Source: a virus (taxonomy: Duplodnaviria; Caudoviricetes). Taken from it: a DNA stretch of 30,407 nt. Below the pieces are notes generated by a model. The model was not told the origin of the DNA. It ran no database searches and was given only the letters and a program-made list of their open reading frames with translations. Shown piece after piece: positions 6,318 to 20,085 of the stretch. The translations under genes and the position numbers were made by a program. The stretch lies in IMG/VR virus record IMGVR_UViG_3300017754_000406, positions 1-30,407 of that record, one strand, 5' to 3'. Every line of letters begins with the position of its first letter. Position 1 is the stretch's first letter.

Positions 6318-6516
6318 ACAACCAAGCGATATCAGGAGGCTTGAGACCGAGAGGGCAATGCGTATATACATGCGTATGGAGGACTGCCATCTAATCATCA
6401 CAGAGGTGTATGAGAAGATAGTCGACAGAGACTTTGAGAAGGTTCCTGACAAAATCAAGACACTGATATCTGACCTTAGAATGATTCTTAAATCAATGGA
6501 AGACGATGACTTCTAA
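6310..6516 (+). CDS. Hypothetical helical protein
   Basis: 68 aa, overlaps both neighbours in the operon. Confidence 0.65.
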   Translation: MNKQPSDIRRLETERAMRIYMRMEDCHLIITEVYEKIVDRDFEKVPDKIKTLISDLRMILKSMEDDDF

Positions 6517-6883
6517 TCGAGATAAGGAAAGGGAGCTTGAGGCAATAACAAAATATGTCAGCCTGTTTGGTGGATCGTTCCAAAAGCTTGGACAAACGGA
6601 CGTTGGCTACAAGATATTTGACAAAGAGGGCATGGTTGTTGGGTATGTTGAGGTAGTAAAGCTACTACGTAGAGTTACTAGTCCATACCCGCTGAACATA
6701 GACGTGGTCAGACTTTCAAAGCTGATGGGCAAAAGGTTGGGTCCTGTGATTGTTTGGTCCTGTGATGATGGTATTGTATACGGCCCAGTTGAAAAGATGG
6801 TGGCGTCTATGAAGTTTTCTAATGGTGAACTTATTGCGTACTACGAGAAGCAGAAGCCAATCCGGTACGTTAGATTCTCGTGA
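6506..6883 (+). CDS. Hypothetical protein, possibly a degenerate PD-(D/E)XK-fold nuclease
   Basis: 125 aa; RE helix then D-V-G-Y...YVEVVK at the positions expected for D...ExK. Confidence 0.6.
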   Translation: MTSNRDKERELEAITKYVSLFGGSFQKLGQTDVGYKIFDKEGMVVGYVEVVKLLRRVTSPYPLNIDVVRLSKLMGKRLGPVIVWSCDDGIVYGPVEKMVASMKFSNGELIAYYEKQKPIRYVRFS

Positions 6884-6887
6884 CCAT

Positions 6888-6968
6888 GTTGTTGAGGTCC
6901 TAAATCTGAAACAACGAACCCTGCGGTGCGAATCAATCGGGTTTGGTTTGGATCAAACACTGCGGGGT
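6888..6968 (+). ncRNA. Putative structured RNA (hairpin plus multi-branch stem) upstream of the tRNA
   Basis: GTTGTT/AACAAC stem (6888-6915); 11-bp stem ACCCTGCGGTG/CACTGCGGGGT (6918-6968) with two G-U pairs, enclosing two small hairpins. Confidence 0.4.
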
Positions 6969-6972
6969 AAAC

Positions 6973-7046
6973 GATTCGGTAGCTCAGCTGAAAAGAGCGA
7001 CTGCCTTCTAAGCAGTAGGCCATTGGTTTGAATCCAATCCGAATCA
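6973..7046 (+). tRNA. trnR: tRNA-Arg (anticodon UCU), CCA not encoded
   Basis: Full cloverleaf: acceptor GATTCGG/CCGAATC, D stem GCTC/GAGC, anticodon stem ACTGC/GCAGT with loop CT-TCT-AA (TCT 7007-7009), T stem ATTGG/CCAAT, discriminator A7046; Arg identity base A20 present. Confidence 0.92.
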
Positions 7047-7047
7047 C

Positions 7048-7431
7048 ATGAGTATAGTCGGTGACGTTGCCGAGCTTAAGTTTATGGTCCTGATGAGGGA
7101 GATGGGATACACGGTGTGTAAACCAATGAGTCATCATAGCAGGTATGACTTTATCGTCGACATGGCAGGAGACATGAGGCGTGTTCAGGTCAAGTCAACT
7201 AACTACAAGAAGAATGAGGGTGTAAATAGTGGTGTGTATATGTGCCATTCATATACTCAGAAAAGAAAGAACAGGTACCTGAAGTCAGAGGTAGACTACA
7301 TAGCCGTATACATTAGCAACTGCGACGCTTGGTATATGATACCAATACAGGAGATAAAGGGAGAGAACATAAGGATGTACCCTCACAGGACAGACAGCAG
7401 GGGCAAGTTTGAGAAGTACCGGATTAAGTAA
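7048..7431 (+). CDS. PD-(D/E)XK endonuclease (PDDEXK_5, group I intron/homing-endonuclease-like), free-standing
   Basis: GDVAE...SRYDFIVD...RVQVKS...Y...EVDYIAVY...WYMIP pattern. Confidence 0.85.
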   Translation: MSIVGDVAELKFMVLMREMGYTVCKPMSHHSRYDFIVDMAGDMRRVQVKSTNYKKNEGVNSGVYMCHSYTQKRKNRYLKSEVDYIAVYISNCDAWYMIPIQEIKGENIRMYPHRTDSRGKFEKYRIK

Positions 7432-7434
7432 CTA

Positions 7435-10400
7435 CTAGTCTAAGTTAATAATTCCTCCACCACTCTTCTTTTTACTTTTCCTTCCACTCTTTGGAGTGTA
7501 TTGATATGCCTCATCCTTAATCTCTCGCTCTAATTTTTGCATCTCTTTCCTAATCTCACGTTTAATTACCTCCTCAGGATTAACAATTTCATTGAGACCG
7601 CCTTCGCCGAATGTTTCTTTATACAGTTCAGGGTCGTATCGCTCCATGTCTGATCTTGTAGGATAACCTTGAAGCAGCAATTCTTCTAAGTCCTTCTTGA
7701 GTTTCTTTCTCTTTGATGACTTCCCAAGGTCTTTGTATATCTCCTTAAGAACAATCTTTCTAACGTCCTTATACAAAGGGATAAGACCAACATTCCCGAT
7801 AATCTCAAGAGGTATTCTAATTCCTATCTCCTTCTCTGTTATTTCCTTAGCCTCTTTAGTTTTCTTTGGAGCCTCAAGAATTTTTCTTAAAATCAGAAAA
7901 CCTGTCTTTGCTGATGGGCCAAGAGGTCCAAGAGTTGATGCTGCAAGGTCAACTATTTTTTTGTTTGCATCAGGTTTTTTACCTTCCTTATCTGGCGGAA
8001 CAATAGTAAACTGGATGGCATCCTTGTATGGATCGTAATCACCTTCTCTTAAGAAATCAAGCTTTCTTTTATTAACCTCCTCGATGCCTATATTAAACAC
8101 AGTTCTAACTGAGTTTCCGAAGTCTCTTCCAATCATTAGAGATGTAACAGATGATGCAACTGCTTGACCGAGCTTCTGAATAAATGACTTTTCATCCTCT
8201 TCCTCATCATCATCTCCGAACATTGACAACATGCTATTGCTAAGCTGCTGTGTAAGCAAAGAGTACACGACCATACGAGAAGTAACGGCAGCAATCAAAG
8301 CAGTACCCTGCCTTCTAGATATATCACCATTGCCCATCAGCGCATTGATGCCAGTTCTTGCAGTGATGTATTCGTAGGTTACAAACCTAGTCATGTAGTT
8401 GTTGAATCGATTGAAAGCTTTAGCAAATACAGACTGGTTCTGCATGTCTCTGCCCTTCAGGATACCCATGAACGGGTTGTCTGTGGCACTCATAAACGTA
8501 ACGTCCTGATCGGCCTTTGCTGTTGCAGACTGAAGCGCTTCCTTATTTTCATTCATGTAAGCCTCATCGTTGGATGCAATCTTATCAAAGTCAGGCTCTG
8601 TTCCTGTAATCTTTTTGAACTCAAGAGAGAACGAACCAAACCAAACTGGCCTTGTTACAATCTTATCGGGGGTAGATATCAACGCGTCGGCTGTCATCTC
8701 AATAGGGTTCTGAATCTTCTTCTTTACAACCCTTGTGTATATCTGATTGACTGCGTTTGCTACATCGCCTTTCGACTTACTATTCTTAATACCAGCCGCA
8801 TGCTTAAGCATGTTGCTATCAATCATTGAACCGCTAAGAGTGTTATCAGAGTATACCCTGTTTGTTTGAGAGCTGTTAAGGTTATTCATTACAGATACAC
8901 CCAAGGTAGAGAATACAATACCTTTAAGTCTGTACCCTTCAGCAAACATTTTACTTCCTCTTGACAGAACAAAGCTCATGTTGGATAAAAGCTCGGCCAA
9001 GAATCTTGGCGCACCGGCAAGAACAGCTCTGTATCCCTGAGTTGACAGAAAGTTTATGGCATCATCAATGGATGTTGTCTTGCCGAAAGAGCTGACCAGT
9101 ACATTCTCAAGAGCCTGCTCGTATGATTTACCAATAGCATTTGCTATGTCTCTTGCCTGCTTCCCCTTGACGCCATCTTTCATTACATTGATAGACATGC
9201 GTCCAGTTATGATAGGTTCTGTCAGGTAGTAGTCCATGAGCTGGCTTCTGCTGACAAAGTTTGTAACATTGAACGGATCAAAGTTGATAGCCTTTGCCTC
9301 TGGTGTACGCTCAATAAGAGACTTAGCTCTTGATGATGGCATACGACTGCTGCTAAAAGCCTCAATGATTGTCTGACCTGACAGGTCGTCCTTGGCCCTA
9401 CCATCTGATATCACGCTGTGGTGGATGTAGTTGTTGATTGGAACAAACTTCTCACCTCTTATTACGTTTGCGGTATACGATGCCTTTTCTGACAGATCCT
9501 TGTTGATGTCCTTTATAGTCCTGATAGCATTAAACTCAGCACCATTAAATGAATCCAAAAGCTCTTGCATATCAATCTGACCGTTGACAGCAAAGTCATC
9601 TACAATTTGTCGAAGCGTTTCTACATCATAGTCATTGAAGTTAGTCTCACCTGACTCGATAGCCTTTATGGTCTTGTTAATGAAGTCAATTGCAGGTGCT
9701 ACACCTTTCACTCCTGGGTTTGAGTTGTACTCAAGCTGGAGAAGGTATGTCATTATCTTGTACTTGGAAAGTCTAACCTTGGCTGGACTATCATTGAAAG
9801 ATGCAGACACATCATTTAATGCCTTGTCAAGCCTCTTGCTATTATTGTTGGACTCGGTGCTGAACTTAGCATAGGCTTTTGCAATTGGCTCGAACAGGTT
9901 CTTGTAGATTGTCTTTGTCTTGAAGTCTCCGAACACCTGATCGATATAGTAAAGAGGGTTACGAGCAATCATAGTAATGAAAGCATTCTTATCATTCGTA
10001 ACCAAGTTCTTTACCCTAGAGTACATCTTAGAGAACGACAAAGGCTCCGCGTTCTGGACTGCATTACCAAGTTCAGCCCCACTGTTTGCCGAGTTTATCT
10101 TCTTAATAATACGCTGGGCGTAGTGAGGGAAGAATCCGTTATTGATATTGTTTATTACACGAAGCAAGTTTTTCAGCTGCTGATTATCTAAAGACTCCAA
10201 ACCTTTTGTCTGAACTAACTCTGCTAGTCTATTGGCTGCGTCCCTTTCAGCTCTGCTTGGAAGGTTTGATGTATCAATCTCGGCGTCCTGAACAAAGTCC
10301 TGAAGCTGTCTTTTCTCGTCAGCTATTTCCTGCTCAGTCATTGGCGCCTTGACTTCAGCCGGAATGATAGTCGACCTGTACTTTCTCATAATCTCAGCAT

Positions 10401-13400
10401 CTGACGTACTGATAACACCAGCGTCAATCATCTTGTTGATGGTCTTACCAAAGTCAACCTCCCCATTATCGTCTAGCTCCTTGTCTTGGAAGTCGTCAAA
10501 CATTTCCTTCAGCTCTTCAGCCTTGAACTGCTCCTCCTCTACCGCATCAATTATATTAGCTGTGTCTCTTGCAACCTCTGATACATCAGCCAAATCAAGA
10601 ACAGCAGCACGCTCTGAAAGCATATTGACTAGGTCAACGTAGCTGTCAAGAACATCCATTGGTATCAGGTTCGGATTGATGGCAAGCATCTGTCTCAGCA
10701 TTGGCTTAAGGTCCTCAGATATACCAAGCTTGGTCTCGATGTTCTTCTTGGCTTTTGCCAGTGACTTACGGATACCAGCAATCTTGTCTGCGTACTCAGC
10801 GTTCTTGAATACCTTATCCATGTACTCAATAAAGTTTGACACAGACTTGTCGTCAAGAACATTTACTGCTGAGAATCTACGAAGTACAGCTGATGCCTGC
10901 TTGACGCTTATCTTTCCAGTACGTACAAGATCCTTAACAGATTTAGTCAGCTCTCCTGAAGCTTTTTTCCAAGCAGCCTTCAAGCTCTTGGCCCCAAGAC
11001 TCATGTTCTTTATTCGGTCTATAATTATCTGCTTGTCTGTTGTTGTAATTTTAGTAACATCATTCAGAAGACCTAACAGGCGGCGAGCAGATGGAGGGTT
11101 TCTGTATGCCTCACCAAGCATACCATTCACCTGACGCACCAGCTCATCGCGTTGGATGTCATCAGAATTTTTGTATATATCAGACTTGGATACGAATCTT
11201 TTTACCAGATCAATCATCTCCTGACCAGTAAGCTTACGCTTGAGTGCGTTCGGAATCAACGTGTCTGTCACGTCTCTCATCAGCTTGTCGTATCCGGGCA
11301 GCTCAGATACTGGCTTGCCTTCTTGTGCAGCTTGCTCTTTTACTGATTCTTTTATCTGGGCTGCTTCTGCTGTTTTTGATATTGATATTTCTCTTCCTAA
11401 TCTAATAGACTCAGACATCTGATTGAAGAAGTCAATCACTTCTTTCTTGCTGACAGTCTCCTTGAATGGAACAATCGCTCCGTTTGTTATCTGAGATACA
11501 ATCTTGTTTACTACCTGAGCAATCTTCTGGAACGTGCTAACTGGTATTTGCTTGCCCTGATCTGACATCAATGCGGAAAACTGAACAAGCCATTCTTCAT
11601 AACTCTTCTCTTCCCTATATTGAGATGCAAACTCATTTAATCCTTTTACGGTTGACTTTGAAAGTACTGATGTTAGTTGGTCTCTGAACTTACTAAACAA
11701 TTTTGGATTTTCACCAAAAGCTGCACTCATTACAGCATGAGCAACCTCATGATATACTGTCGTTGGGCTAGCATTTGAAAGGTTAATGTCTATCCTTACT
11801 ATTCTGCTACCATCTGGATATATTATTTGTGAAAATATACCTCTTGACTTTACTTTTGAACCAATCGACTCGGCGAAGGCGTCATAGTCACTACCATTTT
11901 CATGAAGATATATCTGTGCATTTGGTATAACAGACTGAAGTGTCTTCAGAACTTTCTTTGCAGCTGCAATTACAGACTTAACTCTTTCATCCTTTTGAGC
12001 TCTTGACTCAACATCCTCCATCATTGACTCGTTAGAGATGGATACTCCCTTCTGTTCCTTTACAGTTACCGGAGCTTCAAGCTCTCTTACAACACCAGTC
12101 TCAGCAGCAATAACTTTAGTCTGTATTGGCTTAGTCTTCTCCTCTCTTCCTTCTACAATATCTCTATACTTTTCTCTAACGCTCTCAGGCATAATTTCCC
12201 AAGAGTCAATCTTCTTATCGGGCACACCAACTACCTCTCCGAGTATTGTATTGTGATATGTTGAGTGCGGAGCATTTTCTCCTACACCAGTAGGCTTGCC
12301 GACAAGCATTATATCGTTTTGCTTGAAATCATTCTCTCTGTAGAAACCATCTCTCAGATCATTGTAGTCTACAAAAACATTGAATGTGCCAAGCAGTTCT
12401 TTAAGAGAACCCTGAGGAGCCGTCTTTAGTTTACCAATCTTATCGATGGCAATCAGGAACTCTTTTCTCTTGGTACTCTTAGATAGCTCCTCAAAAGAAT
12501 TGACTGAGTTTAATGCAGACTTTATTGTCTTCAGTTCATTGGTTTCTTTGCCAAAAGAGTTGATGGCATTCTTGAAATCCTCGAAGCTAGATGTCTTGTT
12601 TATTCTTTCAGCTATCAGGTCTAGAACCCTACGGTTAAACAGCTTTGCTTTTTCAGGAGACCCGCTGATAAAGAATATGTAATCGGCTTTGCTTACTTGC
12701 CCCTCTAATGTTTTCTTAGAAAGACCACTCGCCCACAGGATACCTTTACTTTTGTTTTCAGGATCTAGTGCGAAGCTTGGACCTGCATCTAGGTAGTGAT
12801 TGTCTCCAATGACAGCATCGTAGTAATTCCCACGCCCCAACTGGTCAGCCATCCAAAACCAAACCTTCTGCTTCTTCTCTATGATAGTCTTGATCAGGCT
12901 GTTGATATCAATCTTGTCAGACTCAGTAACAAACGAAAGAGGAGCAGGTGTTTTCGGGAACTTAACGTCAGTACCTTTCTGCTCTTTTACAATAACCTCA
13001 GGGTCCCCTATCGATACCGATGCTCCTTCCTCTACAGCTTGAGTATCCGGAGAAGCAGATGGTTCAACCACAGACGGGGCTGTTGGTGTAACTTCCGTAA
13101 CTTCCTGTGTCTTCAAAGACACTTCAGGAGCAGTCTTACCAATAGCGCTTTCAACTGCTTGAACTAGTTCAGGATTGCTGCCATCTGCTTTTGCCTTATG
13201 GTATGCTTCGGAAATTAAGTTTGCATTTATCTCAGAAACATTTGACTTATTAAAAACAATAATTTCCTGTCTTGGGATAGGTGATTTTAATCGAGTAAAA
13301 TTGTTTAACAAACCATCATACCCCATATTCTCTAACGCTCTTCTAAACTGAGGGTCTTCTTTTAGTTCTTGAGCATAATTACCATCGATATATTTTCCGT

Positions 13401-16326
13401 TCAATATCTCTTTTGGTATAAGTATATCTTCTTTTACCGTCTCTTTCCAAGATTCAACAAGTCTATCATTAAAGTCTTTTGTCACCTTTGCGTCAATATC
13501 AAAAAGATTTGACGTTGCTAATGATAGTTTTTTCAATACACCTTTTCCTTTAGTGTACATCTTCCCTACTATCTCATTTGGAGATATAAAAATATCCTTT
13601 TCAGGAAGTTCTTCTACAGGCTGCCCTCTAAAGTATTTTGTTGATTTTGTTTTTTCAAACAATGGTTCAATGTCTATGCCTTCCAACGCCTTAGATGTAC
13701 TCTCTACATCTCTTAGAGCAGGTGCTACTTCTTCTTGCGTGAGCGGAGCAGTGATGGTTTCTTGGACACCTTCTGCGGTAACTCCTTGAGGTTCTGCTTG
13801 GGGTTCTCCTTCCGCCACTTGTTCGCTAACTCTGGTTGTTGGCTGTACAGGTACTTCACCTGCTGCTTGCTTTTGAACGGCATCTTCTGATATTTTTGTT
13901 AGTTCTTCGTTAATTGCGTTTATTCTGTTCTGTTGTGGTTTAACCAATGCTGCGTCCTTACCCTCAACCTGCTGCTCCAAACCACGGCGCTCGCGCAGTA
14001 GGTTCATTGCCTTCTTTTTATCCTCAGTAGTAAGACCATCAGGCACTGAGTTCAGTAATGATATTGCATTTCGGTACTCATTCAGTTGCTCCTTTGCATC
14101 GGCAAGAGTAATCTCACCTGAGTTTACTTTCTCCTTAAGCTTTGCTACGTATGCTGATCTGATGTTATCATCCTGAGCTCCCAGCTCAAACATCTTAAAC
14201 ACATCATCGCTTACTCCAAGATATCCTTGTCCTCTATTTGCGGCTGCTATAGCACTTGGCATACCAAGAACCATACCTCCAATCCCCTCAGCTGCTGCCG
14301 CTTCAAGTATGTCTGCTGCATATTCACCCACCGTTAATGGCAGGTCAAACATTTTCTTTTCTTTAATGGCGTTGTATATATTTTTTGCGCCAAGCTCAGC
14401 AATTTGTTGGGCCGCTCCAGTCTCTGCCTCTGCTAAAACACCCCCAACAATTGTTAATGCACCTCTTGCGATACCACTTTCAACTTCATTCTTGACTAGC
14501 TCTCCAAATGTCTTTGCTGTTGTTGTGGCACCAGCCTTTCCTATAGCAGATAATGCTAGCCTATTAAGAAGACCTTTGTTGCCAACAACATTTCTAAATC
14601 CTAATCTTTCCAACTGAGCAACTACAATTGACAATGGAACTGATACAGCCATCTTCTCAGACTCTGAAACATCATTAAAGTCTGGATCACTGTTCATCTG
14701 ATTCATCATGTAGTCATGACTCTGACCTATAAGCTTTGCTGTTTTAACTACAGACCCGCCGCCAACAAATGAAGGTATTGACTCAATAGCGCCAAGAAGA
14801 ACACCAGACAACCAGTTCTGTTTTGAAGATTGCTCATACTCCCTTGTTGTGCTGGTAAACATTTCGCCTGCATTCTTTATCGCATCAATTACAACAGGCT
14901 TTTCTTCTTTTTTTATTTGGTCTTTTAGTCTGGACTGTATATCGCTTTTGTAATCATCACTCAATCCCATCCACCATTTCTCATAGCCTTCTCTTGTAAT
15001 CTTTCCATCAGGTCCTTTTTCTGGACCAGCAATGTTATCCTTTTGAGCCATTTCTATATAGCTCTCTTTAATCCAATCACTCCCCCTAATCCAGTCAATC
15101 GGTTGAACAGAATACGCAGCCTCTAAAGCCAAGTCAGCAATACCAGATACTATATTTGTTCCACCTCTAACCAATGCATCAATAACAAGATCATAAGGAG
15201 TTCCCTGCTCCGACTTCATCTCAGTATACTTACCGATAGCTTTATCAAGCGTAGCGCCTCTCTGAGCTATAGACTCCTGACGTGATTGTGCATTTGAGAC
15301 TCTTGAGTTATATGCAGCGCTCTTTACCTCATACATCTTCATTGCAGAGTCCTTTACGGTAGGATCTGTTATTGACTGTATTGAGTTGTATTCATTTGTT
15401 AGTTCCTGAGAAAGCTTTGCAAGATCCTTTAGCTCTTGGTTTAGAGCGTCAGCATCCTGACTGAAAATCTTTGTCTCAGCTTTAACCTCCTCATCTGTAA
15501 CAAACTTTCTGTTCTCGTCCTGATACTGCTTCTCAATCTTAGCCAAATCAATTGGCTTAATCTTCATTGACCCTGACTGAATAAATCTACGAAGACGGTC
15601 CGCTTCAGCTCCCTCCTTTGCTCCAGTAAATGCGTCAAGAGATATCTCAATAGTCTCTCCGGTAGGAGAGGTAGCCTTCATGTAATCTCCAAGAGCACCA
15701 GCCTCCTCAAACTTAAACCCTAGTGGGCCAAACTGATAGTTAAGGCTAGGCACCACATACTCCTCCTCCATACCAACACGCTCAGGAGTAATGCCCTCAA
15801 GAAGGGGCTTAATAAATCCGGGAGTGGCGGCCTCTCTTTCTGCCTCTCTTTTTGCAACATCTCTTGGGAGAACGCCAACTCTAGGAGCGGCTGTGCTTTC
15901 AGATACAATACCTACGGATGGCTTAATGATTGGCTCAGTCCCTGCTGATACCGACAAACCATCTTCCGATGGCAATGCCATAGCGGCGCGTTCCATTGCC
16001 TGCTGCCTTTGTGCGCCTCTTCCTACTGGAGTTGGAGACATTCTTGGCTGTACCTCTGGAGCCTTCTGTTGAGGAAACTGAACCATCCCCTGAGGAAGTC
16101 CCACCGTTGTCGGCTCCTCTTTTTTTTTATAAGGTGCTTGGAATCGTCCGACCATTGAGCCGAACTGAGTAGCGTCAGAGACTAAACCATTTATCTGAGC
16201 GTATGAGAACATGTCATCAAACACCTCTTGGTCTGTCTTGATAAGCGAAGCAAAATCGTTACGAGATTTTTTATATCCCAAAGATGTTGCTCTGTTATAT
16301 AGTTGGTCTATCAGTTTCTCGTCCAT
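7435..16326 (-). CDS. Giant (2963 aa) putative internal virion/ejection protein of large polyvalent type, with ART-like and zincin (HExxH) modules
   Basis: Last gene of the tail/ejection cluster; Gly/Ala hydrophobic helices at about aa 380-700; ART-like motifs at aa 883-1036; HEVAH at aa 1526; long helical C-terminal half; tandem TAG TAG stop. Confidence 0.8.
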   Translation of the reverse strand: MDEKLIDQLYNRATSLGYKKSRNDFASLIKTDQEVFDDMFSYAQINGLVSDATQFGSMVGRFQAPYKKKEEPTTVGLPQGMVQFPQQKAPEVQPRMSPTPVGRGAQRQQAMERAAMALPSEDGLSVSAGTEPIIKPSVGIVSESTAAPRVGVLPRDVAKREAEREAATPGFIKPLLEGITPERVGMEEEYVVPSLNYQFGPLGFKFEEAGALGDYMKATSPTGETIEISLDAFTGAKEGAEADRLRRFIQSGSMKIKPIDLAKIEKQYQDENRKFVTDEEVKAETKIFSQDADALNQELKDLAKLSQELTNEYNSIQSITDPTVKDSAMKMYEVKSAAYNSRVSNAQSRQESIAQRGATLDKAIGKYTEMKSEQGTPYDLVIDALVRGGTNIVSGIADLALEAAYSVQPIDWIRGSDWIKESYIEMAQKDNIAGPEKGPDGKITREGYEKWWMGLSDDYKSDIQSRLKDQIKKEEKPVVIDAIKNAGEMFTSTTREYEQSSKQNWLSGVLLGAIESIPSFVGGGSVVKTAKLIGQSHDYMMNQMNSDPDFNDVSESEKMAVSVPLSIVVAQLERLGFRNVVGNKGLLNRLALSAIGKAGATTTAKTFGELVKNEVESGIARGALTIVGGVLAEAETGAAQQIAELGAKNIYNAIKEKKMFDLPLTVGEYAADILEAAAAEGIGGMVLGMPSAIAAANRGQGYLGVSDDVFKMFELGAQDDNIRSAYVAKLKEKVNSGEITLADAKEQLNEYRNAISLLNSVPDGLTTEDKKKAMNLLRERRGLEQQVEGKDAALVKPQQNRINAINEELTKISEDAVQKQAAGEVPVQPTTRVSEQVAEGEPQAEPQGVTAEGVQETITAPLTQEEVAPALRDVESTSKALEGIDIEPLFEKTKSTKYFRGQPVEELPEKDIFISPNEIVGKMYTKGKGVLKKLSLATSNLFDIDAKVTKDFNDRLVESWKETVKEDILIPKEILNGKYIDGNYAQELKEDPQFRRALENMGYDGLLNNFTRLKSPIPRQEIIVFNKSNVSEINANLISEAYHKAKADGSNPELVQAVESAIGKTAPEVSLKTQEVTEVTPTAPSVVEPSASPDTQAVEEGASVSIGDPEVIVKEQKGTDVKFPKTPAPLSFVTESDKIDINSLIKTIIEKKQKVWFWMADQLGRGNYYDAVIGDNHYLDAGPSFALDPENKSKGILWASGLSKKTLEGQVSKADYIFFISGSPEKAKLFNRRVLDLIAERINKTSSFEDFKNAINSFGKETNELKTIKSALNSVNSFEELSKSTKRKEFLIAIDKIGKLKTAPQGSLKELLGTFNVFVDYNDLRDGFYRENDFKQNDIMLVGKPTGVGENAPHSTYHNTILGEVVGVPDKKIDSWEIMPESVREKYRDIVEGREEKTKPIQTKVIAAETGVVRELEAPVTVKEQKGVSISNESMMEDVESRAQKDERVKSVIAAAKKVLKTLQSVIPNAQIYLHENGSDYDAFAESIGSKVKSRGIFSQIIYPDGSRIVRIDINLSNASPTTVYHEVAHAVMSAAFGENPKLFSKFRDQLTSVLSKSTVKGLNEFASQYREEKSYEEWLVQFSALMSDQGKQIPVSTFQKIAQVVNKIVSQITNGAIVPFKETVSKKEVIDFFNQMSESIRLGREISISKTAEAAQIKESVKEQAAQEGKPVSELPGYDKLMRDVTDTLIPNALKRKLTGQEMIDLVKRFVSKSDIYKNSDDIQRDELVRQVNGMLGEAYRNPPSARRLLGLLNDVTKITTTDKQIIIDRIKNMSLGAKSLKAAWKKASGELTKSVKDLVRTGKISVKQASAVLRRFSAVNVLDDKSVSNFIEYMDKVFKNAEYADKIAGIRKSLAKAKKNIETKLGISEDLKPMLRQMLAINPNLIPMDVLDSYVDLVNMLSERAAVLDLADVSEVARDTANIIDAVEEEQFKAEELKEMFDDFQDKELDDNGEVDFGKTINKMIDAGVISTSDAEIMRKYRSTIIPAEVKAPMTEQEIADEKRQLQDFVQDAEIDTSNLPSRAERDAANRLAELVQTKGLESLDNQQLKNLLRVINNINNGFFPHYAQRIIKKINSANSGAELGNAVQNAEPLSFSKMYSRVKNLVTNDKNAFITMIARNPLYYIDQVFGDFKTKTIYKNLFEPIAKAYAKFSTESNNNSKRLDKALNDVSASFNDSPAKVRLSKYKIMTYLLQLEYNSNPGVKGVAPAIDFINKTIKAIESGETNFNDYDVETLRQIVDDFAVNGQIDMQELLDSFNGAEFNAIRTIKDINKDLSEKASYTANVIRGEKFVPINNYIHHSVISDGRAKDDLSGQTIIEAFSSSRMPSSRAKSLIERTPEAKAINFDPFNVTNFVSRSQLMDYYLTEPIITGRMSINVMKDGVKGKQARDIANAIGKSYEQALENVLVSSFGKTTSIDDAINFLSTQGYRAVLAGAPRFLAELLSNMSFVLSRGSKMFAEGYRLKGIVFSTLGVSVMNNLNSSQTNRVYSDNTLSGSMIDSNMLKHAAGIKNSKSKGDVANAVNQIYTRVVKKKIQNPIEMTADALISTPDKIVTRPVWFGSFSLEFKKITGTEPDFDKIASNDEAYMNENKEALQSATAKADQDVTFMSATDNPFMGILKGRDMQNQSVFAKAFNRFNNYMTRFVTYEYITARTGINALMGNGDISRRQGTALIAAVTSRMVVYSLLTQQLSNSMLSMFGDDDEEEDEKSFIQKLGQAVASSVTSLMIGRDFGNSVRTVFNIGIEEVNKRKLDFLREGDYDPYKDAIQFTIVPPDKEGKKPDANKKIVDLAASTLGPLGPSAKTGFLILRKILEAPKKTKEAKEITEKEIGIRIPLEIIGNVGLIPLYKDVRKIVLKEIYKDLGKSSKRKKLKKDLEELLLQGYPTRSDMERYDPELYKETFGEGGLNEIVNPEEVIKREIRKEMQKLEREIKDEAYQYTPKSGRKSKKKSGGGIINLD
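13725..13883 (-). CDS. Nested (overprinted) 52-aa basic protein of MPFKS type in the +1 frame of the giant gene
   Basis: Translates as MPFKSKQQVKYLYSQQPELANKWRKENPKQNLKELPQKVSKKPSLLRSRKKK*; A-rich leader with A at -3 and -10 to -14; absent from the supplied ORF track (<60 aa). Confidence 0.7.
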   Translation of the reverse strand: MPFKSKQQVKYLYSQQPELANKWRKENPKQNLKELPQKVSKKPSLLRSRKKK

Positions 16327-19245: not shown

Positions 19246-20085
19246 TCACGGATAGCTTTTCATTACCTCGGACTCTACGGCAAACAATTCTACCTTGGCG
19301 GTATCGCTGTTCTGTATGTCAAACACGCAGTAGTGACCAAGCACTCCATGCGACTCAGCCACCGAGTTCTTGATGAACATAATGTACGGGTCCTGAATGG
19401 GAGGTATGGTAGCCAGCGGAATTGTAGTATCGACAATGATTCTATTTAATCCTGACGGGTAGTCTACAATAATGTCAGTCACTTTACCGAAAAGGACAGC
19501 CGTATTGTATGGAGGTAATGAGTAGTACAGGATGTCTCCTATGCTCATTATTGACCCGATCGATATTGGTGTCGGGCTGATCTGGAAATTGACCTCTACA
19601 GCAGAAGGGACAGCCGAGTTGATTGTCGTAGACCTACCGATACCATTAACGCTACGTAGTGGGTACTCCTCAGGGCTTGCAGGTGTGGTTCCGGAGTTTC
19701 TAATAAAGGCAAAGAATGACTGCTCCTTCTTCTCGAACCAAGGCGCCTGAATGAATCCAGATGTCTGAAGATCAGTCTGAAGTGTAGCCTCCCACTTAGC
19801 GTCACCCTCAAGGTTCAGTGTCTTAAACAGCTTGTTCTCAAGGGGGGCATCATTAAAAACGCTAACCATTCTGGTAGACGTAAAGGCGTTCTGTGGCTGA
19901 CCTTGTCTGGTCCACCAGTCTAAGTAGAATGTGTTTCTTAAGGAGTTAACATTGTGTCGGTACAGGTTTGCTCCCTTAAAGGTGTAGAAGTAGTTATTCA
20001 TCCCAATCATCCAGTCTGGATAGTAGGAATAGAATGAGGGCCAGCCCTGAACCCCTTCGCTATGTGTAAGTGTATAGTTAGACAT
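19246..20085 (-). CDS. Tail stabilization/nozzle protein, separately encoded C-terminal part
   Basis: TLTHSE...GWPSFYSY.P...NNYFYTF...LYRH...VFNDAP..NKLFKTLNLEG...FEKKE...LGHY...ELFAV resembles the C-terminal part of crAss-like/P22 gp10-like stabilization proteins (recalled). Confidence 0.65.
   Translation of the reverse strand: MSNYTLTHSEGVQGWPSFYSYYPDWMIGMNNYFYTFKGANLYRHNVNSLRNTFYLDWWTRQGQPQNAFTSTRMVSVFNDAPLENKLFKTLNLEGDAKWEATLQTDLQTSGFIQAPWFEKKEQSFFAFIRNSGTTPASPEEYPLRSVNGIGRSTTINSAVPSAVEVNFQISPTPISIGSIMSIGDILYYSLPPYNTAVLFGKVTDIIVDYPSGLNRIIVDTTIPLATIPPIQDPYIMFIKNSVAESHGVLGHYCVFDIQNSDTAKVELFAVESEVMKSYP

Follow-up and report, generated by a model that had tools for sequence, protein, structure and literature searches.

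The locus described here raises the question of why a phage carries a tRNA-Arg(UCU) gene in which the near-invariant elbow pair G19-C56 is replaced by A19-U56, and whether this replacement reflects decay, selection in the phage or descent from a host gene with the same pair. The gene belongs to the window, i.e. the whole stretch of DNA analysed, a virus record of 30,407 bases in which a replication arm with primase-like, helicase and VRR-NUC genes runs rightward and the virion arm converges on it. The window is probably about half a genome, since relatives retrieved through the helicase reach about 55-64 kb. The junction of the two arms holds one tRNA gene, located in a slot with the following features, the basis of each assignment being given in brackets.

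6506..6883, plus strand: gene of a 125-aa protein without family, last conserved gene of the replication arm and left border of the slot (comparison with relatives)
6884..6972, plus strand: non-coding leader with two hairpins (about 6887-6916 and 6919-6967) and conserved loops (sister loci; no Rfam match)
6973..7046, plus strand: tRNA-Arg(UCU) gene, positions 1-73 with 20a (sequence, ARAGORN, Rfam, fold)
6991, plus strand: A19, a G in canonical tRNAs, adjoining A20 at 6992 (sequence)
7007-7009, plus strand: anticodon of the tRNA-Arg(UCU) (sequence)
7029, plus strand: U56, a C in canonical tRNAs, predicted Watson-Crick partner of A19 (sequence, covariation)
7046, plus strand: discriminator A73 (sequence)
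7048..7431, plus strand: gene of a free-standing PD-(D/E)XK endonuclease of 127 aa, Pfam PDDEXK_5 (Pfam E 2.4e-21; profile match to PDB 2OST, E 1.9e-10; allele pattern of the sister loci L526 and L527)
7435..16326, minus strand: gene of a 2963-aa protein at the end of the convergent virion arm, right border of the slot (annotation)

The sole match of the 2963-aa protein (7435-16326, minus strand) is a PHROG of unknown function, at the C-terminus, and a crAssvirus muzzle C-terminal domain is carried by the protein encoded at 19246-20085 (minus strand).

The tRNA gene and its elbow

The gene folds into a cloverleaf of 7, 4, 5 and 5 pairs in which the four stems are fully paired, the D loop reading A14 G15 C16 U17 G18 A19 A20 A20a A21 and the T loop U54 U55 U56 G57 A58 A59 U60. 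This cloverleaf is both the minimum-energy and the centroid fold (-22.1 kcal/mol, z -2.08, 6 of 200 shuffles as good). An earlier note on this DNA had reported A19 (6991) and U56 (7029) in a tRNA-Arg(UCU) with perfect stems, an observation confirmed by the sequence, by both search programs and by the fold; its guess that scanners would score the gene low or call it a pseudogene proved wrong, as ARAGORN calls a tRNA-Arg(tct) at 6973-7047 and Rfam RF00005 gives 68 bits (E 5e-13) against a gathering score of 29. The core tertiary bases U8-A14-A21, G15-C48, G18-U55 and U54-A58 are present. G19-C56 is absent as literal bases and a Watson-Crick pair is retained as A19-U56; since the pair is kept by covariation, this lack lowers the agreement with the canonical consensus and not the status of the gene as a tRNA. 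The 19-56 pair is described as a Watson-Crick pair that lies exposed and offers a stacking surface to the RNAs and proteins that bind the elbow (PMC4810234). The arginine identity set is intact, with A20 (6992), C35, U36 and A73 (7046); the identity rule given in PMC9976931 comprises A20, C35, U/G36 and A/G73, A20 being the major bacterial arginine identity base. The gene encodes no CCA end: immediately after C74 (7047) comes the ATG (7048) of the endonuclease reading frame, which occupies tRNA positions 75-77, the CCA site.

A survey of 19/56 covariation in phage tRNAs, as suggested in the earlier note, was performed on viral contigs. With A19 fixed and position 56 free, 123 loci representing 111 distinct tRNAs were obtained (about 710 stretches estimated from 11/64 parts); with G19 fixed and position 56 free, about 41,000 stretches were estimated from 1/64 parts. 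U56 is found in 99 of the 111 distinct A19 tRNAs, the others displaying C56 (11) or A56 (1), and C56 is found in 139/139 distinct G19 tRNAs. Positions 19 and 56 are therefore paired far beyond chance and the pair is real and compensated, which bears out the view that the two changes are compensatory. Uncompensated single changes in relatives, regarded beforehand as evidence against that view, do occur and are rare (C56 in 11/111 viral and 3/121 cellular A19 genes); these A19-C56 genes fit passing intermediates. The reverse combination, G19-U56, is seen in 0/139 G19 viral tRNAs; if it were only as frequent as A19-C56, a sample of this size would be expected to miss it, and the zero is thus no sign of a preferred route.

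A19-U56 is rare, amounting to roughly 2-3% of the viral tRNAs with such a D-arm type, and is spread over many isotypes and unrelated tRNA bodies. A scan for viral Arg-UCU genes without bias at 19/56 yielded 120 loci; of the 118 matches that were parsed in full, 114 are G19-C56 and 4 are A19-U56 genes. Arginine tRNAs make up 56/99 of the viral A19-U56 tRNAs and 37/139 of the G19-C56 ones (odds ratio 3.6, p 4e-6, kinship ignored). When Arg-UCU genes with A19 were searched in species genomes (about 510 stretches estimated in 185,579 genomes), the 121 loci comprised 117 A19-U56, 3 A19-C56 and 1 A19-G56, and about three quarters of them bear Bacteroidota titles, mostly Chitinophagaceae and its genera (counted by eye). 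Chitinophagaceae-type A19-U56 tRNA-Arg genes also occur in records titled Sphingomonadales, Citrobacter and Paceibacteria (L246, L343, L349, L317), these contigs having probably been mis-binned or mislabelled. One viral tRNA-Arg(UCU), with U19-A56, displays a double transversion of the elbow pair that is likewise compensated (L425, 2492-2568, minus strand).

The same G18-A19 and U54-U55-U56 can be recognized in the tRNA-Ile(GAU) of phage T5 (T5t02, NC_005859 28210-28286), whose RefSeq note describes it as convertible to an amber suppressor. The T5 gene differs in its isotype and in that the likely host family of the window phage shares the swap. To our knowledge, E. coli, the host of T5, has G19-C56 throughout.

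A family trait and the origin of the phage gene

The cellular gene closest to the phage tRNA, L334 of isolate SKW33, lies in a genome (G002) whose record title is Chitinophagaceae, and the genomes of the family of G002 were used as the family sample. For tRNA-Arg(UCU), 201 such genomes show A19-U56 in 51, G19-C56 in 134, both in 0 and neither pattern in 16 (lists compared by eye); among these 16, uncompensated A19-C56 genes are represented by L365 and L369, the latter close to the end of a contig. For tRNA-Arg(ACG), all of the 117 matches, from 111 of 121 family genomes, carry A19-U56 (rows read by eye). The pair is scarce in a sample of the whole phylum Bacteroidota (5/141 Arg-UCU and 15/121 Arg-ACG matches), so that the trait points to Chitinophagaceae. 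In G001, the complete genome of Puia sp. P3, A19-U56 is restricted to Arg-ACG and Arg-UCU among 46 distinct tRNA calls, Arg-CCU being canonical. A19-U56 is an arginine-specific trait of the family, fixed in Arg-ACG and polymorphic in Arg-UCU, with Arg-CCU and the other tRNAs lacking it in the one genome G001. Since the A19-U56 genes are the only matching copies for their codons, they would have to work in translation. The opinion that the phage gene is functional rather than decayed is accordingly upheld: the gene looks functional, in view of the covariation and of A19-U56 being carried by the only matching chromosomal copy in 51/201 genomes.

No residue of the N-terminal domains of ArgRS separates 8 A19-U56 from 5 G19-C56 genomes (13 of the 15 genomes searched gave the domain). 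No report of a natural A19-U56 in Chitinophagaceae or phage tRNA-Arg was found in a literature search that covered few subscription papers; the genes themselves lie in public genomes. Some irregular genes were observed in the same genomes. The tRNA-Arg(UCU) match of G042 is split by about 640 bases (L368, L377) with a distant PDDEXK_5-like frame in between, and split matches also occur in G101 (L372/L376) and G178 (L371/L375); all three are possibly intron-containing tRNA-Arg genes. In G001, the ArgRS frame (L677) breaks after about 206 codons and some tRNAs display one-base insertions or deletions, probably as assembly errors.

L334 is identical to the phage tRNA at 69/74 bases, the 5 others differing, and shares A19-U56, G15-C48, the anticodon and T stems, A20, A73 and the absence of an encoded CCA. 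The tRNA-Arg(UCU) of Puia sp. P3 (L297) likewise has A19-U56, G15-C48, A20, A73 and no encoded CCA. The phage gene is distinguished from L334 by U4-A69, A20a, G26 and C47, by being phage-borne and by the endonuclease start codon directly behind it. Where the stems differ from those of the nearest cellular genes, pairing is always preserved, and an encoded CCA is absent in 62/63 close cellular genes; the donors thus also lack it, and the missing CCA of the phage gene is not a sign of decay. Within the phylum sample (141 matches), G15-C48 combined with the CATTGG form of the T stem is seen only in six family-sample loci and in G335 (read by eye). Viral sequences are more distant: besides the window's own contig, the best viral match (L427) shows 8 differences, and the tRNA-Arg(UCU) genes of the sister phages L526 and L527 show 22. 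A BLAST search of the slot against phage records returned matches to tRNA-Arg genes only. A Chitinophagaceae-type origin of the phage tRNA is, on these sequence comparisons, well supported, and the host is likely a member of Chitinophagaceae, as judged from the likeness of the tRNA and the Bacteroidota-type phage genes only. A capture of the tRNA and the endonuclease as one chromosomal unit was considered and rejected: no endonuclease match was obtained in the 201 family genomes, in a search run with no positive control, and the cellular tRNA loci show no flank similarity.

The donor may have carried either allele. Twenty of the 134 G19-C56 family genes, chosen for a similar core, were compared over their full length, and the nearest (L699, L700, L703) show 6 differences from the phage tRNA, of which 4 lie outside 19/56. 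Inheritance of the swap from an A19-U56 donor is favoured, not proven, by the thin margin of 5 versus 6 differences. The converse, that a G19-C56 Chitinophagaceae gene was captured and acquired the swap later in the phage lineage by two near-neutral transitions (G to A and C to U), the tRNA being still an ordinary, working one, appears unlikely while deserving serious consideration. L699, L700 and L703 have the U4-A69 of the phage; A19-C56 intermediates exist (11/111 viral; L365); viral tRNAs of many isotypes and with widely differing bodies show the swap repeatedly; and it would be tolerated in the phage since the host machinery already accepts A19-U56 on arginine tRNAs. However, this course of events needs two changes at near-invariant sites, whereas the route from an A19-U56 donor needs one swap of an acceptor-stem pair, which is a far commoner kind of change. 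Moreover, a quarter of the family already has the A19-U56 allele, and both alleles travel on other viral contigs with this tRNA type, the 24 of them carrying A19-U56 (7), G19-C56 (16) or U19-A56 (1).

The preferred reading, to which we assign a probability of roughly 0.6, is that the A19-U56 tRNA-Arg(UCU) is the Chitinophagaceae form, captured from such a host and predicted to serve as an ordinary elongator tRNA for AGA codons. The tRNA is a real, compensated and probably functional variant of a known molecule, best regarded as a trait of the host family carried by a phage. It would be part of the early-arm transcript, from which host RNase P would release it; the host would also trim it and add the CCA, and host ArgRS would charge it via A20 and the anticodon. 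A19-U56 would keep the purine-pyrimidine geometry and the flat stacking face of the elbow at the cost of one hydrogen bond. Host RNase P, CCA-adding enzyme, ArgRS and ribosome would already handle A19-U56 on their own arginine tRNAs, as judged from these host genes being the only matching copies. A pre-tRNA with the G19A/C56U double change is cleaved normally by PRORP3 (kreact 1.78 versus 1.67 per minute, KM 7.7 versus 4.8 nM; PMC4797305 Table 4, repeated in PMC5039416), a plant protein-only RNase P, acting on another tRNA body. Cleavage of a single C56U mutant of another tRNA by PRORP1 is given as 22% (PMC5039416).

The captured tRNA would top up the decoding of AGA for the virion genes. AGA is the commonest arginine codon of the virion arm, where it amounts to 49% of 296 arginine codons, compared with 20% in G002 (135 ORFs) and 8% in G001 (50 ORFs). 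Relatives without a tRNA in the slot are also rich in AGA (L432 47%, L438 54%); the supply of AGA decoding is therefore not a requirement.

The endonuclease slot

The endonuclease belongs to the same family (PF11645, PDDEXK_5) and shows the same fold motif as PDB 2OST, which we take to be I-Ssp6803I. The natural target of I-Ssp6803I is a tRNA gene. I-Ssp6803I is also the first PD-(D/E)XK homing endonuclease, with a recognition site of 23 bp (PMC3384342). D6, E9, D34, Q47 and K49 are invariant in 14 homologues, 13 of which show 59-92% identity. The phage enzyme, whose activity is predicted, differs from I-Ssp6803I in that its gene is free-standing at the 3' end of a tRNA and not located inside a group I intron; no intron was detected in an Rfam scan, and the tRNA is uninterrupted. 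A free-standing endonuclease gene beside phage tRNA genes is also known from SegB of T4/T6 (PMC13096335). Of the five annotated phages checked for PDDEXK_5 homologues, four (EC106, AG74, HSTV-4 and Forrest) have them adjoining tRNAs, and no annotated tRNA is found near the homologue of the fifth, EFP01. SegB, in contrast, is a GIY-YIG enzyme encoded within large tRNA clusters. The slot of the window has only one tRNA, and the ATG of the adjoining PD-(D/E)XK gene takes the place of the CCA. Because of this position, maturation of the tRNA 3' end would cut the endonuclease message and may limit its expression.

Searches of viral contigs for relatives with the endonuclease, its alignment or the 125-aa neighbour gave nothing. 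A metagenome scan returned 7 loci, namely the window's own contig, 4 syntenic sisters (L526-L529) and 2 distant ones. Two of the sisters (L526, L527) have a canonical G19-C56 tRNA-Arg(UCU) in the identical slot, ending with C74 before the ATG; in L528 only the acceptor stem and T arm are left (about 1666-1717), directly before the endonuclease start; and L529 has no tRNA in the slot. The endonuclease is kept in all four. Neither the endonuclease nor this tRNA is present in 80 more distant helicase relatives, of which 36 span the junction. Odd tRNA-like calls upstream of the helicase, with acceptor and T-arm sequences similar to the L528 remnant, were noted in L437, L444 and L456. L526 and L527 are 98.7% identical over the upstream 2 kb, 71% over the endonuclease ORF (2001-2384) and 90% downstream; the window and L526 are 91% identical over the endonuclease ORF and 70-80% upstream. 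Endonuclease alleles thus appear to have been exchanged between phages exactly from ATG to stop, as homing would give; this is one event, and ordinary recombination could have produced it too. Judged by its family and by this allele pattern, the endonuclease gene is likely mobile and of the homing type. It appears to move without regard to the tRNA, which sits in an optional slot.

The leader (6884-6972) is kept in all four sister loci, including where the tRNA is lost. Both bases have changed in 3 pairs of its first stem, in each case in L529. Apart from its five training sequences, a model of the leader gave no match in 87 sources, including the 80 more distant relatives. The element could serve as a promoter or a processing signal, or it could be transcribed as a leader RNA for the endonuclease slot. 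The search for sigma-70 promoters and terminators gave no convincing candidate (2 promoter-like sites versus 1.8 expected, with a consensus ill-suited to Bacteroidota).

The earlier note had proposed that the altered elbow serves to escape host defences which target tRNAs. In its most specific form, the swap would have been selected against a host tRNA nuclease, U56 turning the UUC of the T loop into UUU and A19 restoring the elbow pair. The Schlafen nuclease Cash, associated with type III CRISPR, is described as cutting tRNA T loops at a UUC motif (PMC13462974), and phage tRNAs beside homing endonucleases are described as able to counter tRNA-cleaving defence (PMC13096335). A19-U56 also seems commoner in viral Arg-UCU genes (4/118 parsed) than in cellular ones (about 510 stretches in 185,579 genomes), seemingly several-fold so with a cellular denominator taken from Bacteroidota only, and host capture alone does not explain this excess. 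At 19/56, however, the phage tRNA equals the allele of the likely host, itself identified by inference (fixed in Arg-ACG, 51/201 in UCU), so that it presents no contrast with self, and the sister phages have G19-C56 (L526, L527), a remnant (L528) or no tRNA (L529) in the same slot. The main text of PMC13462974 reports mutants of U54 and U55 and, as far as that text goes, never names C56. With 28 E. coli tRNAs cut by Cash, translation could hardly be rescued by one tRNA that resists. The defence proposal is not supported and is judged improbable. A broader version is rated just as low: A19-U56 would be a recurrent escape allele that removes the UUC read by Cash and keeps the elbow, repeatedly selected in phage tRNAs and in the arginine tRNAs of one family, and here coupled to a docked homing endonuclease able to spread or amplify it. 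If U56 did block T-loop nucleases, it would offer tRNAs a simple and general way to escape such defences.

That the gene is decaying or non-functional, or only an attachment site for integration into a host tRNA gene, is very improbable. The CCA is not encoded, the slot decays in the sisters (L528, L529) and the 3' part has a 21-base core common to host genes, but the stems all pair, the stem differences from the nearest cellular genes preserve the pairs, the Rfam score is 68 bits and the host genes are also without CCA; a scan of 25 window proteins revealed no integrase family, on a contig that is probably only half the genome. Least credible is the idea that the swap shields the phage's own DNA from the neighbouring endonuclease, which would have the T arm of a G19-C56 tRNA gene within its target: the enzyme is related to I-Ssp6803I with its 23-bp site (PMC3384342) and U56 lies 19 bases upstream of the ATG, but L526 has a 93% identical endonuclease beside a G19-C56 tRNA, so that C56 is compatible with nearly the same enzyme, and A19 would be needed only as compensation.

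Phage tRNAs are already known to be linked with homing endonucleases, and the gene that starts at the CCA site provides a PD-(D/E)XK instance of this association. With the capture of a Chitinophagaceae-type gene as the preferred reading, the phage A19-U56 tRNA is less a surprise than a helpful marker of the host and a test case supplied by nature. A whole bacterial family has replaced the near-invariant G19-C56 pair in its main arginine tRNA, and a quarter of its members have done so in the tRNA that reads AGA. Such matched natural alleles allow one to ask what purpose the sequence of the elbow pair serves and why the swap is tolerated most often by arginine tRNAs.
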